A stretch of 11,155 nucleotides of DNA from a virus (lineage: Duplodnaviria > Heunggongvirae > Uroviricota > Caudoviricetes): IMG/VR virus record IMGVR_UViG_2529292887_000008. One strand, written 5' to 3'. The stretch's first letter is position 1; the number at the start of each line of letters is the position of its first letter. This document shows, piece by piece, positions 2,543-10,971 of the stretch. The position numbers were made by a program, and so were the translations under genes. The notes under the pieces were generated by a model. It saw nothing but the letters and a program-made list of their open reading frames with translations, was not told the origin of the DNA and made no database searches.

Positions 2543-2578
2543 CAACGCCCCGCAGTGATGGGAACACATACGGGGCGT
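2543..2578 (-). terminator. Hairpin with downstream U-tract on minus strand (putative terminator between modules); also 5' part of repeated leader element copy A
   Basis: Stem ACGCCCCG (2543-2550) / CGGGGCGT (2571-2578); on the minus strand followed by TGTTTTTTGTGC. Confidence 0.4.
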
Positions 2579-2665
2579 CTAACCAAACCATTAATTGAGG
2601 TAACGATTATGGTTATAAAAGAGCATAGCTTACTCTTTATACACACACAAACGCCCCGGAAACGG

Positions 2666-2688
2666 AATAATCCGTTTCATAGTTCGGT
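2666..2688. terminator. Perfect 8-bp hairpin GAAACGGA-ATAA-TCCGTTTC just past the stop of the 2698-2925 gene
   Basis: Stem-loop read directly from sequence, 10 nt beyond the minus-strand CDS end; the flanks are T-rich on the plus strand and GU-rich on the minus strand. Confidence 0.4.
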
Positions 2689-2697
2689 TTTGTGCAC

Positions 2698-2925
2698 TCA
2701 TCCTGGCGGTCGGTTTTTGCCGGATTTAAGCCGCCGTGGGTATTTATCGACAAAATCTTCAAGGGCAAATTTTTCTGGTGGCACTAAGCGCGGCGCTGGT
2801 GGTGGTATTTTTGTTCTGGTTAGTTCTTCCTCAAGTCTGGCGCAGGCTTCTGACTGCCTTTGCCGGATGATTTCATCATCTTGCGTTTGCGAGTCTTGTA
2901 TTGGTGATAGTGTGTTGTTGGTCAT
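2698..2925 (-). CDS. Small hypothetical protein (75 aa), paralogue of 2037-2240
   Basis: MTNNTLSP...EKFALEDFVDKYPRRLKSGKNRPPG; shares motifs and the upstream conserved leader with the 67-aa paralogue. Confidence 0.5.
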   Translation of the reverse strand: MTNNTLSPIQDSQTQDDEIIRQRQSEACARLEEELTRTKIPPPAPRLVPPEKFALEDFVDKYPRRLKSGKNRPPG

Positions 2926-2930
2926 GATAC

Positions 2931-2980
2931 TGCCCTGTAAAGCAATGCGCCGTAGTACCTCACACCACGGCGCTGATAGT
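2931..2980 (-). promoter_or_regulatory. Conserved ~45-bp intergenic element (copy 1) between RHH gene and small-protein gene
   Basis: CCTGTAAAGCAATGCGCCGtAGtaCCTCACaCCACGGCGCTGAT; differs from copy 2 only at loop positions of the GCGCCG/CGGCGC hairpin. Confidence 0.45.
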
Positions 2981-2982
2981 GA

Positions 2983-3162
2983 TTATTCTGATTCTTTGGC
3001 CTTGCGACGCTGGCGGTATTCAACTTCCCGCTTTAATGCAGCTGTAACAAACTGCCCTGTACTTTCGCCGGGCATTTTTACCGCCTCAACATTGTTCATA
3101 ACTTCATGTGGAACCCTTGCCGCAACTGTTTGTGATTTTGCGTTTACTGCTTTTGTCGCCAT
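2983..3162 (-). CDS. Ribbon-helix-helix (Arc/CopG/MetJ-like) DNA-binding protein, 59 aa from ATG 3162 (ORF track starts at GTG 3171)
   Basis: MATKAVNAKSQTVAARVPHEVMNNVEAVKMPGESTGQFVTAALKREVEYRQRRKAKESE: beta-strand TVAARV, helix A, G-x-S/T turn, helix B; SD GAGGGG 8 nt upstream of ATG 3162. Confidence 0.6.
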   Translation of the reverse strand: MATKAVNAKSQTVAARVPHEVMNNVEAVKMPGESTGQFVTAALKREVEYRQRRKAKESE

Positions 3163-3212
3163 GTTGAGCACCCCTCATAAAAAACAAATGCAGTATGCAG
3201 GAAAAAAAATAA

Positions 3213-3288
3213 GTGTTCAACACTTGACGTGTTTAACACCTCGATTTAAATTGGTGTTCAACACCTTATTTAGGCAAGGTGTTGAAAC
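3213..3288. promoter_or_regulatory. Operator array (4 copies of palindromic GTGTT-N-AACAC) overlapping a plus-strand promoter
   Basis: GTGTTCAACAC 3213-3223, GTGTTTAACAC 3229-3239, GTGTTCAACAC 3254-3264, GTGTTGAAAC 3279-3288; candidate -35 TTGACG at 3224-3229 and -10 TAAATT 3247-3252 between the divergent RHH gene and the replication operon. Confidence 0.5.
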
Positions 3289-3354
3289 GACGAAACCCCG
3301 CACTGTAGGAGCAGTAACGGGGCTTCTAACCAACAACGTAAACGAGGAGCCGTT

Positions 3355-3552
3355 ATGGTTGCTGTAAATCATATACCACACCTTGTACACACACAAACTG
3401 CCTTTGTGTGGCGTTTTCTGGCACTGAGTGCCGGAGAATCTCAAATCATCCACGTAACCGCCTGGACGGAACGCGAAGCGCGTAGCCGTTGCCCGTCCGG
3501 TTGTGTTGCTGTATTTGCCGCCCGTATTCGTCAGGGGGTATGCCGTGCTTAA
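3355..3552 (+). CDS. Hypothetical protein (65 aa), first ORF of rightward operon
   Basis: Strong SD GAGGAG 5 nt upstream of ATG 3355; the first ~45 nt belong to a repeated leader element (see findings), so coding status is uncertain. Confidence 0.35.
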   Translation: MVAVNHIPHLVHTQTAFVWRFLALSAGESQIIHVTAWTEREARSRCPSGCVAVFAARIRQGVCRA

Positions 3553-4158: not shown

Positions 4159-4458
4159 ATGAAACTTAAATATTCTGGCTTAACTGCCAGTGGCAACACT
4201 CACCCTAAATTTACGCGCGGTGATATTTACCGCGACCAGTACGGCGGCACGGTAATGATTAAGGGCGTGGCGGGACGGTGCGTAACTTACCGCCGTGAAG
4301 GTTACGAATATGATTGCGTGATGCCTGTTTATCAGTTCCGGCGTGATTTTTCTCTGGTACAGACCGCGCCGCATAACGTGCCCACCAGCAACGCCAGGGC
4401 ACGGGCAAACATCCAGAAGCTGAAAACCATGATTAACGGATTCAGGGGTAAAAAATGA
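4159..4458 (+). CDS. Hypothetical protein (99 aa)
   Basis: SD GGAGA 9 nt upstream of ATG 4159; stop overlaps the primase start (ATGA at 4455-4458). Confidence 0.55.
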   Translation: MKLKYSGLTASGNTHPKFTRGDIYRDQYGGTVMIKGVAGRCVTYRREGYEYDCVMPVYQFRRDFSLVQTAPHNVPTSNARARANIQKLKTMINGFRGKK

Positions 4459-6203
4459 AACTGGCACCGAACGTAAAAAAACAGCCACGCGGAATAAAAC
4501 ACAAAGACACAGAGGTAATTATCTTTGCGGGTAGTGATGCCTGGTCGCACGCGAAACAATGGCAGGAGCAGGATGGCCCCGCATCCGGCGATAATGTGCC
4601 GCCTGTGTGGCTTGGGCCAAAGCAGCTTGCCGAACTTGATGCGCTGAAAATTGTTCCGGATGGGAAAAAGCGCGTAAGGCTGTACCAGGCCGGAGAACTG
4701 GATTTAGTGGAGACCAAAAAGATTGGTCAGAAGCTGGCGGCGGCAGATATTCAGGACGCAAATTTTTACCACGAAGGAATGCACGTCCAGAAGTGTGAAA
4801 ACTGGCGGCGCTATCTGAATGCTGAGCGTGAAAATATTGCCGCAGGGCTTACCATGCCGGAGCAGAAAAATACGCAACTGGCACAAATGGCAGACAGTGA
4901 GCGCGCACAGATGCTTGCTGGTCGATTTGATGGCGTTTGTGTGCATCCGGAAAGTGAAATCGTTCACGTATGGCGCGGCGGGGTATGGTGTCCGGTCAGC
5001 ACAATGGAACTTAGCCGCGAAATGGTGGCGATCTATTCAGAGCACAGGGCCACTTTCAGCAAGCGCGTAATCAATAACGCCGTGGAAGCATTAAAAGTTA
5101 TTGCCGAACCAATGGGCGAGCCGTCCGGCGATTTGTTGCCGTTCGCCAATGGTGCGCTTGACCTGAAAACAGGGGAATTTTCCCCGCACACGCCGGAGAA
5201 CTGGATCACCACGCACAACGGCATTGAATACACGCCACCAGCACCAGGGGAGAATATCCGCGACAACGCGCCAAACTTTCATAAATGGCTTGATCACGCA
5301 GCCGGAAAAGACCCGCGCAAGATGATGCGTATATGTGCCGCGCTGTACATGATTATGGCGAACCGGTACGACTGGCAGATGTTTATTGAGGCCACCGGAG
5401 ACGGCGGGAGCGGTAAAAGTACATTCACACACATAGCCAGCCTTCTGGCAGGGAAACAGAACACGGTAAGCGCTGAAATGACATCGCTTGATGATGCTGG
5501 TGGACGTGCGCAGGTTGTCGGGAGTCGTCTTATCGTCCTGGCAGACCAGCCGAAATATACAGGCGAAGGAACGGGCATCAAGAAAATCACGGGCGGCGAC
5601 CCCGTGGAAATAAACCCGAAATATGAAAAGCGTTTCACGGCGGTAATCAGGGCGGTGGTGCTGGCGACCAATAATAACCCGATGATATTCACCGAACGGG
5701 CCGGAGGTGTGGCACGTCGTCGCGTGATTTTCCGTTTCGACAATATTGTTAGTGAGGCCGAAAAAGACAGGGAACTACCGGAAAAAATTGCGGCTGAAAT
5801 CCCCGTTATTATCCGCCGCTTGCTGGCGAACTTTACCGACCCTGAAAAGGCGAGGGCTTTACTACTGGAACAGCGTGACGGTGATGAAGCACTGGCAATA
5901 AAGCAACAGACGGATCCGGTTATTGAGTTTTGCCAGTTCCTGAATTTTCTGGAGGAAGCGCGCGGCCTGATGATGGGTGGCGGTGGTGATTCAGTGAAGT
6001 ACACGACCAGGAACAGCCTTTACCGCGTCTATCTGGCGTTTATGGCATACGCAGGCAGGAGCAAACCGCTAAACGTGGCTGAGTTCAGCAAGGCCATGAA
6101 GCCAGCGGCGAAAGTTTACGGGCATGAATATATTACGCGAAAAGTTAAGGGAGTAACGCAGACCAACGCAATTACAACAGACGATTGCGACGCGTTTTTA
6201 TAA
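4455..6203 (+). CDS. Replication initiator: P4-alpha / D5-family primase-helicase (582 aa)
   Basis: Walker A GDGGSGKST (nt ~5401-5427), Walker B-like RLIVLADQ, and overall resemblance to the phage/plasmid primase P4-family C-terminal domain; SD AGGGG upstream; iteron origin immediately downstream as in PICIs. Confidence 0.88.
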   Translation: MKLAPNVKKQPRGIKHKDTEVIIFAGSDAWSHAKQWQEQDGPASGDNVPPVWLGPKQLAELDALKIVPDGKKRVRLYQAGELDLVETKKIGQKLAAADIQDANFYHEGMHVQKCENWRRYLNAERENIAAGLTMPEQKNTQLAQMADSERAQMLAGRFDGVCVHPESEIVHVWRGGVWCPVSTMELSREMVAIYSEHRATFSKRVINNAVEALKVIAEPMGEPSGDLLPFANGALDLKTGEFSPHTPENWITTHNGIEYTPPAPGENIRDNAPNFHKWLDHAAGKDPRKMMRICAALYMIMANRYDWQMFIEATGDGGSGKSTFTHIASLLAGKQNTVSAEMTSLDDAGGRAQVVGSRLIVLADQPKYTGEGTGIKKITGGDPVEINPKYEKRFTAVIRAVVLATNNNPMIFTERAGGVARRRVIFRFDNIVSEAEKDRELPEKIAAEIPVIIRRLLANFTDPEKARALLLEQRDGDEALAIKQQTDPVIEFCQFLNFLEEARGLMMGGGGDSVKYTTRNSLYRVYLAFMAYAGRSKPLNVAEFSKAMKPAAKVYGHEYITRKVKGVTQTNAITTDDCDAFL

Positions 6204-6217
6204 TTTTTTGTAAAAGC

Positions 6218-6441
6218 CCTCTACCCCATCTACCTGAATGAAATAAATACATATTATTCAACATGATAAGTGGGTAGAGGGCCAGGTAGAAGGCTAATAA
6301 AAGCTCTCTACCTCTTCTACCTGATTTTATCAGTTTCAGGTAGCAGGGTAGACGGCAGGTAGAGGAGCTCAAAAAGCTATCTACCCGCTGAAAGCCGCGC
6401 CATTACTGACATGATGAGCATTCGGGTAGATGGGTAGAGGG
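6218..6441. repeat. Iteron cluster (putative replication origin): at least 12 copies of core GGTAGA in alternating orientation blocks
   Basis: CCTCTACC 6218-6225, CCATCTACC 6226-6234, GGGTAGAGG 6272-6280, CAGGTAGAAGG 6283-6293, CTCTCTACC 6304-6312, TCTTCTACC 6313-6321, CAGGTAGCAG 6337-6346, GGGTAGACGG 6347-6356, CAGGTAGAGG 6357-6366, CTATCTACCC 6378-6387, GGGTAGATGG 6424-6433, GGGTAGAGGG 6432-6441. Confidence 0.65.
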
Positions 6442-7208: not shown

Positions 7209-7216
7209 ACGCACAG

Positions 7217-7238
7217 GCCGGAGAAAATCCGGCTTTTT
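7217..7238 (+). terminator. Intrinsic terminator
   Basis: Stem GCCGGA (7217-7222) / TCCGGC (7228-7233), loop GAAAA, then TTTTT (7234-7238). Confidence 0.65.
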
Positions 7239-7445: not shown

Positions 7446-7652
7446 ATGGCAGAAGAGAAAAAAGGCGGTGTTTCGGTGTACATAAGCCCCGAAATCGTGG
7501 AGGTGCTCAAGCAGCGCCACAAAAAAAACTATGAGGCTGGCGTAGCGGCTGGACTGGATCCGCTGATGACGCCGGAGCCGTCGATAGGTTCACTTGTGCG
7601 CTCTTATTTACTTGCGGCGCTTGGGATGCATAAAAATTATGGGGGTGAATAA
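7446..7652 (+). CDS. Hypothetical protein (68 aa), possibly RHH-like
   Basis: SD AAGAGGA upstream; the stretch VSVYISPEIVEVLKQRHKK suggests a beta-strand followed by a helix; stop overlaps capsid gene start (TAATG). Confidence 0.5.
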   Translation: MAEEKKGGVSVYISPEIVEVLKQRHKKNYEAGVAAGLDPLMTPEPSIGSLVRSYLLAALGMHKNYGGE

Positions 7653-8707
7653 TGGCAGGCAAAGCAACGGCACTTAACACTAACCAGCTTTTTGCGTACC
7701 TGAATCGCGGGGATATTGCGGAATTTAAATTCAGTCCGCTGTTTACCACGCTGTTTTTCCCGAACGTGGCGACATTCAGCACCCAAAACATCATGCTGGA
7801 TACCCTGGACATTGAAGAAGTCACCATGTCGGCGTTTTGTTCGCCTATGGTTGGCAGCCAGGTACAGCGCGATAAAGGATACGAAACCAGCACGATTAAA
7901 CCTGGCTACATGAAGCCAAAGCACGAAATCGATCCAACAAAAACCATCATGCGCATGGCTGGAGAAGATCCGGCACAGCTTAACGACCCTACCTACCGAC
8001 GTATGCGCCTGATTACTGGCAACATGCGCCGCCAGGTAAACGCCATTAAAGCGCGCGTGGAATGGCTGGCGGTGAATGCGATAACGACCGGAAAAAACAT
8101 TATTGAGGGCGAAGGCATAGAACGCTATGAAATAGACTGGAAAATACCGGAAAACTGCATCATAGAGCAGGGCAAGGGTAAAAAATGGTCCGAGCAGGAT
8201 AAAGAGATGCACGACCCAATCTATGACATCGAGCTTTATGCTGATCAGGCTGGTTGCCCCGCAAACGTCATGATTATGGGCGCTGAGGTATGGCGCACGT
8301 TACGCAGCTTTAAAAAATTCCGTGAGCTGTACGATCTTTCCCGTGGTTCAGAATCCGCCGCAGAACTGGCCTGTAAAAACCTGGGCGAAGTGGTGAGCTT
8401 TAAAGGCTATCTGGGCGATATTGCCCTTATCGTCTATTCCGGCAAATACGCTGACAGCGACGGCACAGAAAAATATTTCCTTGAGCCTGATTTGCTGGTT
8501 CTGGGCAACACCAACAATAAAGGGCTGGTGGCCTATGGTGCGATAATGGATCAGGAAGCGGTAAGAACGGGCGCAACACAAAACATGTTTTACCCGAAAA
8601 ACTGGATTGAGGACGGCGATCCGGCGATTGAGTACGTGCAGACACACAGTGCACCGCAGCCGGTACCGGCAGATATTCGCAAATTTGTTACCGTCAAAAT
8701 TGGTTAA
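7652..8707 (+). CDS. Major capsid protein, lambda gpE family (351 aa)
   Basis: Conserved blocks versus lambda gpE as I recall it: EFKFSPLF..LFF, PGYMKPKHEIDP, EDPAQLNDPTYRRMR, WSEQDKEMHDPIYDIELYA, RGSESAAELACKNLGEVVSFKGYLGDIALIVYSGKY, VLGNTNNKGLVAYGAIMD, YPKNWIEDGDPAIEY...SAP; similar length (351 vs 341 aa). Confidence 0.88.
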   Translation: MAGKATALNTNQLFAYLNRGDIAEFKFSPLFTTLFFPNVATFSTQNIMLDTLDIEEVTMSAFCSPMVGSQVQRDKGYETSTIKPGYMKPKHEIDPTKTIMRMAGEDPAQLNDPTYRRMRLITGNMRRQVNAIKARVEWLAVNAITTGKNIIEGEGIERYEIDWKIPENCIIEQGKGKKWSEQDKEMHDPIYDIELYADQAGCPANVMIMGAEVWRTLRSFKKFRELYDLSRGSESAAELACKNLGEVVSFKGYLGDIALIVYSGKYADSDGTEKYFLEPDLLVLGNTNNKGLVAYGAIMDQEAVRTGATQNMFYPKNWIEDGDPAIEYVQTHSAPQPVPADIRKFVTVKIG

Positions 8708-8719
8708 CGGGGGGATTCT

Positions 8720-9055
8720 ATGGACACTCCATACATTGAGTTATTTGCAGGCAGTCAGCAGGTCGCCACGACGCTGGTACATTTTGCCGCTGATGCTGGC
8801 GTTATTCAGGAATTTACCCCGCTGATGCTGGCGGACAATGGCGAGTTTAAGCCGTGGGATGGTAAGGAATCTGGCAAGGCTGTTTATCTGACCTCGTACC
8901 CTGTGGACACGTCAAAGCAGAAATCAGCACAGTGTTACAAGACGGGGATATTCAATATTGCCGCCGTTAACTGGCCTGAGAGCGTCGACACCGATGCGAA
9001 AAAATGCGCCGCCTTTGCGGGTTCCGGCGTATCCGTTCAGCCGCTGGCCCGATAA
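8720..9055 (+). CDS. Head decoration protein, lambda gpD family (111 aa)
   Basis: Blocks TPLMLAD, WDG, YKTGIFN, WPE, AFAGSGVS match lambda gpD (TPLMLD, WDG, YKSGTF, WPE, AFAGTAIS); same length class (111 vs 110 aa); SD GGGGGG upstream. Confidence 0.78.
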   Translation: MDTPYIELFAGSQQVATTLVHFAADAGVIQEFTPLMLADNGEFKPWDGKESGKAVYLTSYPVDTSKQKSAQCYKTGIFNIAAVNWPESVDTDAKKCAAFAGSGVSVQPLAR

Positions 9056-9067
9056 GCAGGGGGAACG

Positions 9068-9481
9068 ATGGCAACGAATGAAAGCATCATGACGCTACCG
9101 CTGGCGAGTAAATTTAAAGCCGAAGCGCGGGCAATGGCTGACAGAGGTTTATCAACCTATGAGGCCGTATATCAACTAAACAAACTGGAAGAGCAGGACA
9201 AGCCGCGCGCTGATGCGATTATGGCGCTTCATGAGCATAAAGACTATCAGCCGCTGTTGCGTGCAATGGCAAACGTGCCTTGTATCGATGTTGGTACGGC
9301 TAAAAGCATCCTTAGCATGACCATAGAGCAGGAACGTCCGAAGGTTGCGCCGGAACTTACCGCAGCCTTTGAAAACTTTATGGACATGCACAGCCCGCAA
9401 GCCGTATCAGCTGGCATGGCATACGATGGCAGAAACCAGGGCGATGACGGCGACATCGATCGCATACTGAAAACCATCTGA
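9068..9481 (+). CDS. Hypothetical protein (137 aa), last gene of capsid operon
   Basis: SD AGGGGGA upstream; followed by an intrinsic terminator. No family assignable from the sequence alone. Confidence 0.6.
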   Translation: MATNESIMTLPLASKFKAEARAMADRGLSTYEAVYQLNKLEEQDKPRADAIMALHEHKDYQPLLRAMANVPCIDVGTAKSILSMTIEQERPKVAPELTAAFENFMDMHSPQAVSAGMAYDGRNQGDDGDIDRILKTI

Positions 9482-9487
9482 GACAAG

Positions 9488-9509
9488 GCCGGAGAAATCC
9501 GGCTTTTTT
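9488..9509 (+). terminator. Intrinsic terminator (near-duplicate of 7217-7238)
   Basis: Stem GCCGGA (9488-9493) / TCCGGC (9498-9503), then TTTTTT (9504-9509). Confidence 0.65.
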
Positions 9510-9510
9510 A

Positions 9511-9686
9511 CGGGTCCTTCCTGGAATTATGGCCCGTTACGGGGCGGCGACCTCGCGCGTTTTCGCTATTTATGAGCCTTTTCAGGGGGGTGGTGGTGGT
9601 TTTGTTGTTTGCTCTATCTTTATGAATGAAAAGGGAAAGATGCAAACAATACACCAACCTGAAGCAGTAATTAAGTTGGTGTATTA
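9511..9686 (+). other. cos site 1 (plus orientation): lambda-like cosQ-cosN with a non-lambda cosB
   Basis: CGGGTCCTTCCTGGAATTATGGCCCGTTACG followed by GGGCGGCGACCT (9542-9553; identical to the lambda 12-nt cohesive end as I recall it) and CGCGCGTTTTCGCTATTTATGA; thereafter diverged, with an 11-bp inverted repeat AATACACCAAC (9648-9658) / GTTGGTGTATT (9675-9685) abutting the terS start. Confidence 0.7.
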
Positions 9687-10229
9687 ATGAAATCTCATCT
9701 GATGAACAAAAAAAACATGGCGAAAAGCTGCCGTGTAAGTGCGACAGCGTTCGACAAGTGGGGAGTGACTCCCGTTGAACGTAAAGGCCGTGAGGCGTTT
9801 TATGATGTTGCCAGCGTGATAGACAATAGGGTTAACAATGCAATTAGCCAGCTTACAAACGACAAAGGCGATATTGATGATGATGAACTCTTACGAGTCA
9901 GGATCAGATTACTGACAGCACAGGCGGAGGCGCAGGAACTTAAAAACGAGCGCGATCGCGGTGACGTGATTGATACTGAGTTTTGCCTGTACGCGCTTTC
10001 AAAGCTGGCGAGTCAGATTTCATCAATCATGGACAGCCTCCCGCTTACTATGCAAAGGAGCTTCCCACAGATTACCCCCGCCATGCTGGACAGGCTTAAA
10101 AGGGAAGTGGTTAAAGCCTGTAATGCCAGTGCCAGAGTTGCCGACAACCTCCCACAGATACTGGCTGATTACTTGAAAGAAACAACCGGAAACGTACCGG
10201 AAAAGTTGCTACAGAAGAAAGGCAAGTAA
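9687..10229 (+). CDS. Small terminase subunit, lambda Nu1-like (180 aa; ATG 9702 aligns better with the Nu1 N-terminus)
   Basis: LTAQAEAQELKNERDRGDVIDTEFCLYALSKLASQISSIMDSLPLTMQRSFPQ and LKREVVKACNASA parallel lambda Nu1 (LTRAQADAQELKNARDSAEVVETAFCTFVLSRIAGEIASILDGLPLSVQRRFPE...FLKRDIIKAMNKAA); N-terminus MNKKNMAKS...FDKWG parallels MEVNKKQLADIFG...QNWQEQG. Confidence 0.82.
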   Translation: MKSHLMNKKNMAKSCRVSATAFDKWGVTPVERKGREAFYDVASVIDNRVNNAISQLTNDKGDIDDDELLRVRIRLLTAQAEAQELKNERDRGDVIDTEFCLYALSKLASQISSIMDSLPLTMQRSFPQITPAMLDRLKREVVKACNASARVADNLPQILADYLKETTGNVPEKLLQKKGK

Positions 10230-10256
10230 CAGAAGCGCAATTATTGAACAAAAATG

Positions 10257-10451
10257 AGAAAGGATCTGATAATGGCATTTTCTGGCTAAAATGCCTCGTG
10301 TCAGATCCTTTCTTTTTTTAATATTTTCATTGTTAAACAGTCTGTTACAGAGAAGAAGAACGGATCTGACTTTTGCCGGAAAATTTTCATAAACAGATAA
10401 AAACCGCGAGGCCGCCGCCCCGTAACGGGCCATAATTCCAGGAAGGACCCG
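10257..10451 (-). other. cos site 2 (minus orientation): lambda-like cosQ-cosN-cosB with altered R elements
   Basis: Reverse complement reads CGGGTCCTTCCTGGAATTATGGCCCGTTACG-GGGCGGCGGCCT-CGCGGTTTTTATCTGTTTATGAAAATTTTCCGG...CCGTTCTTCTTC...AAAAGAAAGGATCTGACA...TCAGATCCTTTCTC, collinear with lambda cosN-cosB (R3/I1/R2/R1) but with GGATCTGA-type R elements at 10262-10269, 10301-10308 and 10362-10369; cosN complement at 10409-10420. Confidence 0.7.
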
Positions 10452-10484
10452 ACGACACCAGGCTATCAGAACGATGGGGGCACA

Positions 10485-10766
10485 ATGACAGAAGCCGAAC
10501 TACTGCGATTAATCCGCCGCGTTACCGGAATCAGCCAGCAGCATGACGAACAGGGCACGCAACCGGACAGCGTGACCGCTGAAAATTATGCGCGTGTTGT
10601 TGCTGAGGTGATGCGCCGTGATGGTATTGAGCTTAACGGCGTGGATATGCGCAACATACGAACCAGAGTCCTTGAGTTGCTGGCATACCGTCGCCGCGTG
10701 GAGATGTATCGGGAGAAGGAGAAAATCACGTACCACTGGAAGAAGCCGGAACGGTTGCGGCGGTAA
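10485..10766 (+). CDS. Hypothetical protein (93 aa)
   Basis: SD GGGGGG 4 nt upstream of ATG 10485; protein-like composition; unknown family. Confidence 0.5.
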   Translation: MTEAELLRLIRRVTGISQQHDEQGTQPDSVTAENYARVVAEVMRRDGIELNGVDMRNIRTRVLELLAYRRRVEMYREKEKITYHWKKPERLRR

Positions 10767-10850
10767 CTCACTGAGATTAAAGCAAAGCTCAAAATTGCGC
10801 TGGCTGAATGATCATTATGATTACTTATGTTTACGCAGATGATTAAGGCC
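10762..10850. repeat. Direct repeat copy 1 (~80 bp) with embedded palindromes
   Basis: CGGTAACT...TTAAAGCAAAGCtCAAAATTGCGCTGGCTGAATgATCATTATGATTAC[ttatgtttac]GCAGATGATTAAGG; contains AATCATTATGATT (10811-10823). Confidence 0.6.
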
Positions 10851-10893
10851 TAAACCGTTGATTATTCCACAATCCCCCATTGGGGGAAGCTGG

Positions 10894-10971
10894 CGGTAAC
10901 TGGTTGAACTTAAAGCAAAGCGCAAAATTGCGCTGGCTGAATAATCATTATGATTACGCAGATGATTAAGG
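10894..10971. repeat. Direct repeat copy 2 (~78 bp) with embedded palindromes
   Basis: CGGTAACT...TTAAAGCAAAGCgCAAAATTGCGCTGGCTGAATaATCATTATGATTACGCAGATGATTAAGG; contains AGCGCAAAATTGCGCT and AATCATTATGATT (10944-10956). Confidence 0.6.

Follow-up and report, generated by a model that had tools for sequence, protein, structure and literature searches.

Our analysis showed that a viral DNA stretch of 11,155 nucleotides (nt), IMG/VR record IMGVR_UViG_2529292887_000008 (Caudoviricetes; the whole stretch is called the window hereafter), is a cos-type phage-inducible chromosomal island (PICI) of the EcCICFT073 family. Its packaging module has the layout cosQ-cosN-cosB1, then the small terminase gene terS, then cosB2-cosN-cosQ facing back towards terS. 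The specificity factor of these islands is a modular cassette, a Nu1-like terS here and rppA or rppB elsewhere. We consider it probable that the module serves two packaging routes: the island small terminase (TerS) with the large terminase (TerL) of a helper phage at the first site (cos1), and the helper's own terminase at the second (cos2). PICIs carry virulence and defence genes from one enterobacterium to another, and their capture of helper packaging sets host and helper range. The published model of this family, based on Rpp and cos1, gave cos2 no explanation; the comparative data presented here suggest a role for it. Three aspects appear to be new relative to the literature searched: the Nu1-type TerS variant of the module, cos2 as an exchangeable phage cos, and inversion of the cassette in nature.

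The double-cos packaging module

A repeat search of the window identified an inverted repeat with arms of 76 nt that are 87% complementary and 789 nt apart. Direct comparison of the arms gave 66 matches out of 76, and 46 out of 48 over 9511–9558. There were 41 exact inverted 20-mer matches in the window, whereas none of 50 shuffles gave more than 1, so the repeat far exceeds what chance would give. The features of the module are as follows.

9511–9586, + strand: arm 1, cos1 core (cosQ GGGTCCT at 9512–9518; cosN at 9542–9553; I2-like TTTATGA stretch)
9554–9686, + strand: cosB1, island-specific "T type" (G/T-rich block at about 9585–9605; dyad AATACACCAAC at 9648–9658 / GTTGGTGTATT at 9675–9685)
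9687–10229, + strand: terS, island small terminase of the Nu1 family, 180 amino acids (aa) (Pfam Phage_Nu1, 2.3e-23; phrog_57, 3.2e-53)
10230–10408, − strand: cosB2, phage-type "P1 type" (R3, R2, R1; the same cosB lies upstream of Nu1 in phages)
10376–10451, − strand: arm 2, cos2 core (cosN at 10409–10420; cosQ GGGTCCT as the reverse complement of 10444–10450)
9558–10404, no strand: segment between the shared cos cores (cosB1, terS, cosB2), found in either orientation among relatives

Both copies have the lambda-type arrangement of GGGTCCT 5′ of a 12-nt cosN, with about 23 nt from the cosQ core to cosN in each arm. cosN1 is GGGCGGCGACCT, read on the plus strand, and cosN2 is GGGCGGCGGCCT, read on the minus strand. 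The difference is one A-to-G substitution at window position 10412, position 9 of cosN2. It is private to the window: the nearest genome does not have it, and all other scanned cos2 loci have GACCT there. Given this substitution, the ends of cos1 and cos2 in the window would mismatch after cutting. The shared lambdoid cosQ-cosN core is the predicted substrate of the helper large terminase.

The annotated cos site of lambda(DE3) was used as the lambda reference for alignment. Lambda cos consists of cosQ, cosN, I2 and a cosB of the order R3-I1-R2-R1, and is served by Nu1 and gpA. The cos2 of the window is collinear with it over the whole length, including the GTTCTTCTTC block, with R3 and R1 co-oriented and R2 inverted. 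In minus-strand order it reads TTTATGAAAATTTTCCGG, the R3 block TCAGATCCGTTCTTCTTC containing R3 (TCAGATCC, reverse complement of 10362–10369), an A/T-rich spacer, and the inverted pair of R2 (GGATCTGA, reverse complement of 10301–10308) and R1 (TCAGATCC, reverse complement of 10262–10269). A weak match to the integration host factor consensus is correctly placed in cos2 (10319–10331); window-wide, the count of such matches is at chance level. However, the R elements are of the type TCAGATCC rather than the CGTTTCC type of lambda, and the window, unlike lambda, has two oppositely oriented sites, with no terminase gene following cos2 in its orientation.

cos1 shares with lambda cosQ, cosN and an I2-like stretch. 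It tracks the lambda sequence only up to TTTATGA and then continues into unrelated sequence ending in the AATACACCAAC/GTTGGTGTATT dyad; instead of three R elements, only this dyad and the G/T-rich block were seen. In phage records, no match to cosB1 was found past the cosQ-cosN-I2 part. The T-type cosB1 adjoins terS in every terS-type locus scanned, and the N-terminal domain of TerS is nearly invariant across these loci. In a sister cosB type, "X", the dyad is AATACAACAAC/GTTGTTGTAT; here both half-sites have changed in complementary fashion, the pattern expected of a protein site with dyad symmetry.

The TerS protein gave a family-level, full-length match to phrog_57 (residues 1–174) and matched Pfam Phage_Nu1 over residues 33–148. 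It is 41% identical to Nu1 of phage PhiR5_1. Its C-terminal half is well conserved, while the N-terminal DNA-binding region is divergent, aligning with Nu1 (NKK..A..W..P..KG) with other helix residues and a shorter wing. In lambda, the C-terminal half of Nu1 binds gpA. A lambda Nu1 sequence included in one TerS alignment was used for no conclusion. Judging from homology, the true start may be the ATG at 9702 (MNKKNMAK...). Identity of this protein with Rpp was rejected: BLASTP against RppA of CFT073 gave E = 1.3, and no match to the RppC chains of the PDB was found at E ≤ 0.01.

Phage SerU-LTIIb and 40 viral contigs have the P1-type cosB directly upstream of Nu1. The Nu1 proteins of these 40 contigs have a common N-terminal helix, DVRT(I/V)TAWQSQ, and their C-terminal halves vary. 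Identical TerS alleles are paired with either a P1-type (TCAGATCC) or a P3-type cosB2, and a P4 type occurs in related islands. The P3 type is similar to the cosB of a CFT073 prophage, the one whose cos is named phi4 in the 2018 paper. The cosB of EcCICFT073 cos2 (L002:8085-8345) is of a P2 type with CCGGACAT elements; this type is followed by a 169-aa TerS (MATQTEVARHLSL...) in 55 of 74 contigs, with a gpA-like open reading frame (ORF) of at least 500 aa next in 45. Thus cosB2 is a complete cosB of phage type, and it belongs to a specificity class found in lambdoid phages immediately upstream of the phage's own Nu1. These data suggest that cos2, which forms a separate unit of about 250 bp, was copied from a genuine phage cos with a specificity other than that of lambda or phi80, and that it has been swapped between phage types independently of the island specificity factor, which fits a combination of redirection and mimicry.

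For comparison, 80 related viral-contig loci were fetched via the 137-aa protein encoded upstream of cos1. Most of them carry the convergent cos pair, and they fall into classes by site spacing and gene: about 869 bp with a terS cassette, as in the window; 741 bp with an rppA cassette; 761 bp with a cassette for a 146-aa Rpp; and about 526–627 bp with degenerate cassettes. Therefore, the gene between the cos sites is a swappable module. About a fifth of the terS-type islands examined lack cos2 (L088 of strain N10, L019, L026, L039, L049 and L051 have cos1 only). In these the difference is a clean indel of about 250 bp, and the 93-aa gene of the right flank starts 14 nt past the terS stop codon.

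The original prediction, made from the sequence alone, had described an inverted repeat of about 46 bp that places two lambda-type cosQ-cosN units, facing inward, around a Nu1-family terS, one with a lambda-collinear cosB of other R elements and one with a different cosB. All of this was borne out, and the arms proved to be longer. Its view of the arrangement as unusual did not hold, since this is the norm in the EcCICFT073 family and corresponds to the published cos1/cos2. Its "small replicon" was right only in part, the element being a chromosomal satellite island. The prediction had also named an assembly artefact as a way in which it could fail. Because 486 complete E. coli genomes contain the canonical (left) junction, the double cos is not such an artefact. 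A chimeric inverted copy, to which we give practically no credence, is refuted by complete RefSeq genomes, hundreds of which have the same junctions, and by independent viral contigs, dozens of which have them too.

Several minor observations concern the module. The cosB1 half-site core, TGGTGTATT, occurs a third time at 2211, and the 21 nt of 2211–2231 are 86% complementary to 9636–9656 in the cosB1 dyad region; this copy may be due to chance, or may be a second site for TerS or a regulator. A 52-aa ORF at 9529–9687 runs across cosN1 and cosB1; some RefSeq genomes list it as a hypothetical protein (for example L085, 4138–4296), but it is probably spurious. In the 146-aa Rpp islands (L014, L015, L024, L028, L048, L054 and L077), the second cosB is of the island type X, like the terS-linked type, rather than phage-type, and no terS is present; these islands might be packaged by the TerS of another island. 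The packaging module of L207 (strain HY220605) is 99.7% identical to that of the window and of L001. Islands sharing it differ in their integrases, in insertion site (tqsA versus roxA-phoQ) and in having a RepA helicase or a D5 primase, and packaging modules are therefore exchanged among islands.

Two probable packaging routes in comparison with known islands

EcCICFT073 in strain CFT073 is the prototype Gram-negative PICI, and its cos1 and cos2 have been described together with RppA (Fillol-Salom et al. 2018, ISME J, PMC6092414; 2019, Mol Cell, PMC6739421). In the published supplementary figure, the sequence shown as cos1 lies upstream of rppA, and that shown as cos2 is the downstream copy in reverse complement. 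Our analysis of EcCICFT073 showed a 77-nt, 82%-complementary convergent repeat around a single gene, c1503 (rppA), with the same cosQ-cosN core in its arms. The double cos of the window is therefore the known cos1/cos2 pair of the family. The two islands are also alike in synteny, in a convergent repeat that bounds one small gene, in the 93-aa gene of the right flank, and in having a cos1 with an island-specific cosB and a cos2 with a different one. In contrast to EcCICFT073, the cassette gene of the window encodes a full Nu1-type TerS of 180 aa whose sequence is unrelated to that of RppA, which would make a TerS-Rpp heterodimer unnecessary, and both cosB1 and cosB2 are of other sequence types.

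The published experiments bear on both sites. Cloned EcCICFT073 cos1 or cos2 each allowed plasmid transduction by lambda and phi80; cos1, whose cosB is read by an RppA-TerS heterodimer, was needed for island transfer; and deletion of both sites abolished transfer (PMC6092414, PMC6739421). The same papers describe both PICI cosB regions as "completely divergent" from phage ones (PMC6092414, PMC6739421). In our comparison, however, the cosB of cos2, in the window and CFT073 alike, matches the native cosB of other lambdoid groups. The P2-type cosB of EcCICFT073 cos2 is native to another lambdoid phage group; the published statement that the island had no recognisable phage cosB is thereby refined.

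In the two-route model, the island TerS would read cosB1 via its divergent N-terminal DNA-binding domain and would recruit the helper TerL (gpA) via its conserved C-terminal half, and a start of TerS-gpA at cos1 would lead to rightward packaging. A helper with a Nu1 matching cosB2 would package leftward from cos2, with no island factor required. Redirection and mimicry would thus be combined in one element, which could widen the helper range. Because of the convergent layout, a motor starting from one site would meet the other in the wrong orientation for cosQ-dependent termination, so that only whole island units would be packaged. A further consequence of this layout is that recombination between the sites, like cutting at both, can turn the cassette round but never remove it. 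If both sites of one unit were cut, each motor would run off a 0.87-kb fragment, which offers an explanation for the raised lambda transfer after deletion of cos2. The helper-type and island-type specificities that the original prediction had put forward are supported by these comparative data, with cosB1 linked to terS and cosB2 phage-type.

Several points weigh against two routes. The pairings of cosB1 with TerS and of cosB2 with a helper Nu1 are putative, being drawn from linkage and homology. The P1-type cosB was seen in phages and viral contigs rather than in a helper prophage of the same host. A single-sequence AlphaFold model of TerS does not confirm the predicted winged-helix fold of the N-terminus, with a per-residue confidence (pLDDT) below 50 for residues 1–30. 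The frequency of cos2-less terS islands shows that cos2 is dispensable, and the window's own cosN2 carries the private A-to-G change. Deletion of cos2 from EcCICFT073 raised lambda-mediated transfer (PMC6092414, PMC6739421), and therefore cos2 can be a cost with a non-cognate helper.

These last points would also suit cos2 being a non-functional relic, a recombination scar from a phage, with only cos1 mattering: cos1-only islands exist, lambda and phi80 transfer of EcCICFT073 was not reduced by loss of cos2, and the window's cosN2 has a substitution of its own. Nevertheless, we regard a relic as unlikely. The cosQ-cosN core stays within a few substitutions in every cos2-bearing locus and is exact in most; all three R elements are intact in a lambda-like arrangement; and cosB2 has been replaced repeatedly by intact phage-type modules (P1, P3, P4 and P2), with no decay. 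Moreover, the cloned cos2 of EcCICFT073 supports plasmid transduction, and island transfer was lost only with both sites deleted.

The proposed two-route packaging recalls the Staphylococcus aureus pathogenicity islands (SaPIs). These have either an island-encoded small terminase that redirects the helper TerL (pac islands) or an island copy of the helper packaging site (SaPIbov5/SaPIbov4), and SaPIbov4 has been reported with two putative cos sites. Unlike the SaPIs, the window has both strategies in one module of about 0.94 kb; its system is of the lambda cos type, not pac or HNH-cos, and the proteins are unrelated.

Inversion of the cassette between the cos sites

Precise inversion of the segment between the cos sites, exchanged inside a 25-bp core with cosN in it, was seen in three cassette classes: degenerate (L040–L053), rppA and terS (loci including L087, L085 and L086). 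In the degenerate class, the whole segment, with both cosB and the cassette, occurs in both orientations between identical flanks, and the inner segment is 99.5–100% identical as the reverse complement. Differences on the cosQ side remain with the flanks, while those right after CCTCGCG travel with the insert; therefore the exchange took place inside the 25-bp shared core CCCGTTACGGGGCGGCGACCTCGCG, which contains cosN. A MAFFT comparison showed that orientation is interleaved with flank similarity in this class, which argues for more than one inversion event. Both orientations occur in complete genomes.

The rppA cassette is flipped in 15 complete genomes (junction 100% identical) and canonical in 69. 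One example is strain WP4-S17-ESBL-08, whose island at the phoQ site encodes RppA under the accession found in CFT073 but on the opposite strand; the inner 719 bp there are 100% identical to the CFT073 reverse complement. For the terS cassette, at least 5 (5–8) complete genomes have the flipped orientation, at two chromosomal sites (yejO and tqsA/mdtJ), and 486 the canonical one. Islands with an intact cassette gene are strongly biased in orientation (486 versus 5–8; 69 versus 15, clonal), and those with a degenerate one are about evenly divided, in counts that are not phylogenetically independent. This suggests that flipping is recurrent with one orientation mildly favoured, and supports the earlier proposal of an invertible segment. 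In the literature searched, no report was found of inversion between cos sites or within rpp modules. Most simply, inversion is a by-product of the cos arrangement.

As in the Hin, Gin, Cin and Fim systems, a short segment lies between inverted repeats and is found in both orientations. In the window, however, the repeats are packaging sites, the flips look rare and incidental, and no dedicated invertase or recombinase was found near the module; the window's only recombinase, the integrase, lies about 8 kb from it. A programmed switch in the manner of Hin, Gin or Cin, controlling terS or rpp expression or the direction of packaging, could claim the two natural orientations and the bias that is strong with an intact cassette gene and roughly even in degenerate ones. 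Because no dedicated invertase adjoins the module, we consider such a switch very improbable. The flips are also largely clonal, as the 15 flipped rppA genomes with 100% identical junctions indicate, and a flipped cassette takes its own upstream cosB1 region along, so its expression need not change.

We lean slightly towards homologous recombination across the cos repeats, by RecA or by a Red/Rad52-type recombinase of the helper, with terminase at most supplying the breaks. The arms of 76–77 nt are 82–87% identical and include a perfect core of 25 bp. In L054, the same rare cosN substitution is present in both arms, which indicates gene conversion, and the cosQ parts of both arms are homogenised in the window and in L087 (NZ_AP022049.1). 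Against this, a perfect match of 25 bp is at the lower limit for RecA-dependent exchange. Furthermore, every exchange of the degenerate class maps to the cosN-containing core, as cutting and religation by terminase would give, and the L054 substitution is compatible with this route too. It is conceivable, though rather doubtful, that terminase itself makes the flips by cutting both convergent cosN sites, followed by religation. Cutting would free the 0.87-kb cassette with two identical 5′-GGGCGGCGACCT ends and leave the island remainder with two identical ends complementary to them. Ligation would then reinsert the cassette in either orientation and never delete it, because the two ends of the large fragment would be identical, not complementary to each other. 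The exchange points do not tell the two mechanisms apart, since no long identical stretch exists other than the cosN core.

If terminase does drive the flips, a terminase with two convergent cos sites would be a recombinase-free DNA inversion system and a new route of inversion. It would also explain why the island-specific and phage-copied sites stand in convergent rather than tandem order, and would be relevant to the design of double-cos vectors.

Gene content and identity of the island

The features outside the packaging module are listed below.

1–1230, + strand: tyrosine integrase at the island's left end (Pfam Arm-DNA-bind_3, 7.8e-18; Phage_integrase, 4.7e-17)
1605–1793, + strand: AlpA-type regulator (Pfam Phage_AlpA, 5e-18)
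4455–6203, + strand: D5-type primase/replicase (Pfam D5_N, 6e-15; DUF5906; Pox_D5)
7652–8707, + strand: lambda E-like capsid protein (Pfam Phage_cap_E, 1e-50)
8720–9055, + strand: lambda D-like decoration protein (Pfam HDPD, 2.5e-17)
9068–9481, + strand: 137-aa protein, the last of the head-gene block 7652–9481 (phrog_1999; C-terminal part of phrog_53)
9487–9509, + strand: hairpin and T-run 3′ of the 137-aa gene, GGCCGGAGAAATCCGGCTTTTTT, read by eye (near-copy at 7215–7238)
10485–10766, + strand: conserved 93-aa gene on the right flank of cos2 (phrog_1561, 1.9e-56; syntenic in the CFT073 and O157 islands)

These genes show the features of an EcCICFT073-type PICI. The integrase lies at the island end with AlpA next to it; a primase-replicase is present, whose syntenic counterpart in CFT073 carries the annotation DNA primase family protein; and there is synteny with the capsid gene c1499, the decoration gene c1500 and the two cos sites of EcCICFT073. 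The gene order of the window recurs at the roxA-phoQ site in an O157:H7 strain and in CFT073. By gene order, a single-stranded DNA-binding protein (SSB) is encoded between the primase and the capsid gene.

The only head-related genes in the window are the E-like, the D-like and small ones, and no terL, portal or tail gene was found in it from the ORF list and Pfam. Identity as a cf-PICI of the EcCIEDL933 type was rejected, as the HNH, TerL, portal, protease and HK97-type capsid module of such islands, features taken from a preprint, is not in the window. The E-like, D-like and 137-aa genes are a partial lambda head module carried by the island. The 137-aa protein is 88–100% identical across the 80 loci. 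It matches the head maturation protease family phrog_53 at profile positions 495–567 of 583, and this match suggests a Nu3-like scaffold. A scan of species-representative genomes with this protein gave no confirmed relatives. PDB sequence searches with the 180-aa, 137-aa and 93-aa proteins gave no matches, nor did NCBIfam for the cassette or flank proteins, or Rfam and tRNA scans of the window.

The hairpin at 9487–9509 is a possible terminator insulating the cassette, although a consensus terminator scan did not list it. A scan of 9300–10600 for promoter and terminator consensus sequences gave nothing informative, and no promoter was found upstream of terS.

Repeats were observed in other parts of the window. 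Directly after the primase gene, at 6211–6434, there is an iteron-like array of a 27-nt direct repeat and the inverted repeat CCCATCTACCTGAATG; these repeats probably mark the replication origin. Between int and alpA (1279–1318), three iteron-like ACAA(C/T)GTG units are found at 10-bp spacing. A 75-nt direct repeat with 80% identity (2230–2304 and 2915–2989, 685 nt apart) has its copies within two unannotated ORFs, 1846–2598 and 2555–3367, which gave no Pfam matches; this points to duplication of an accessory gene into a pair, or to a regulatory element that is repeated. Just 3′ of the 93-aa gene, 10759–10971 gave no Rfam match and contains a tandem-like duplication, composed of a 66-nt repeat (89% identity, period 133) and, after it, a 24-nt repeat (96% identity, period 123).

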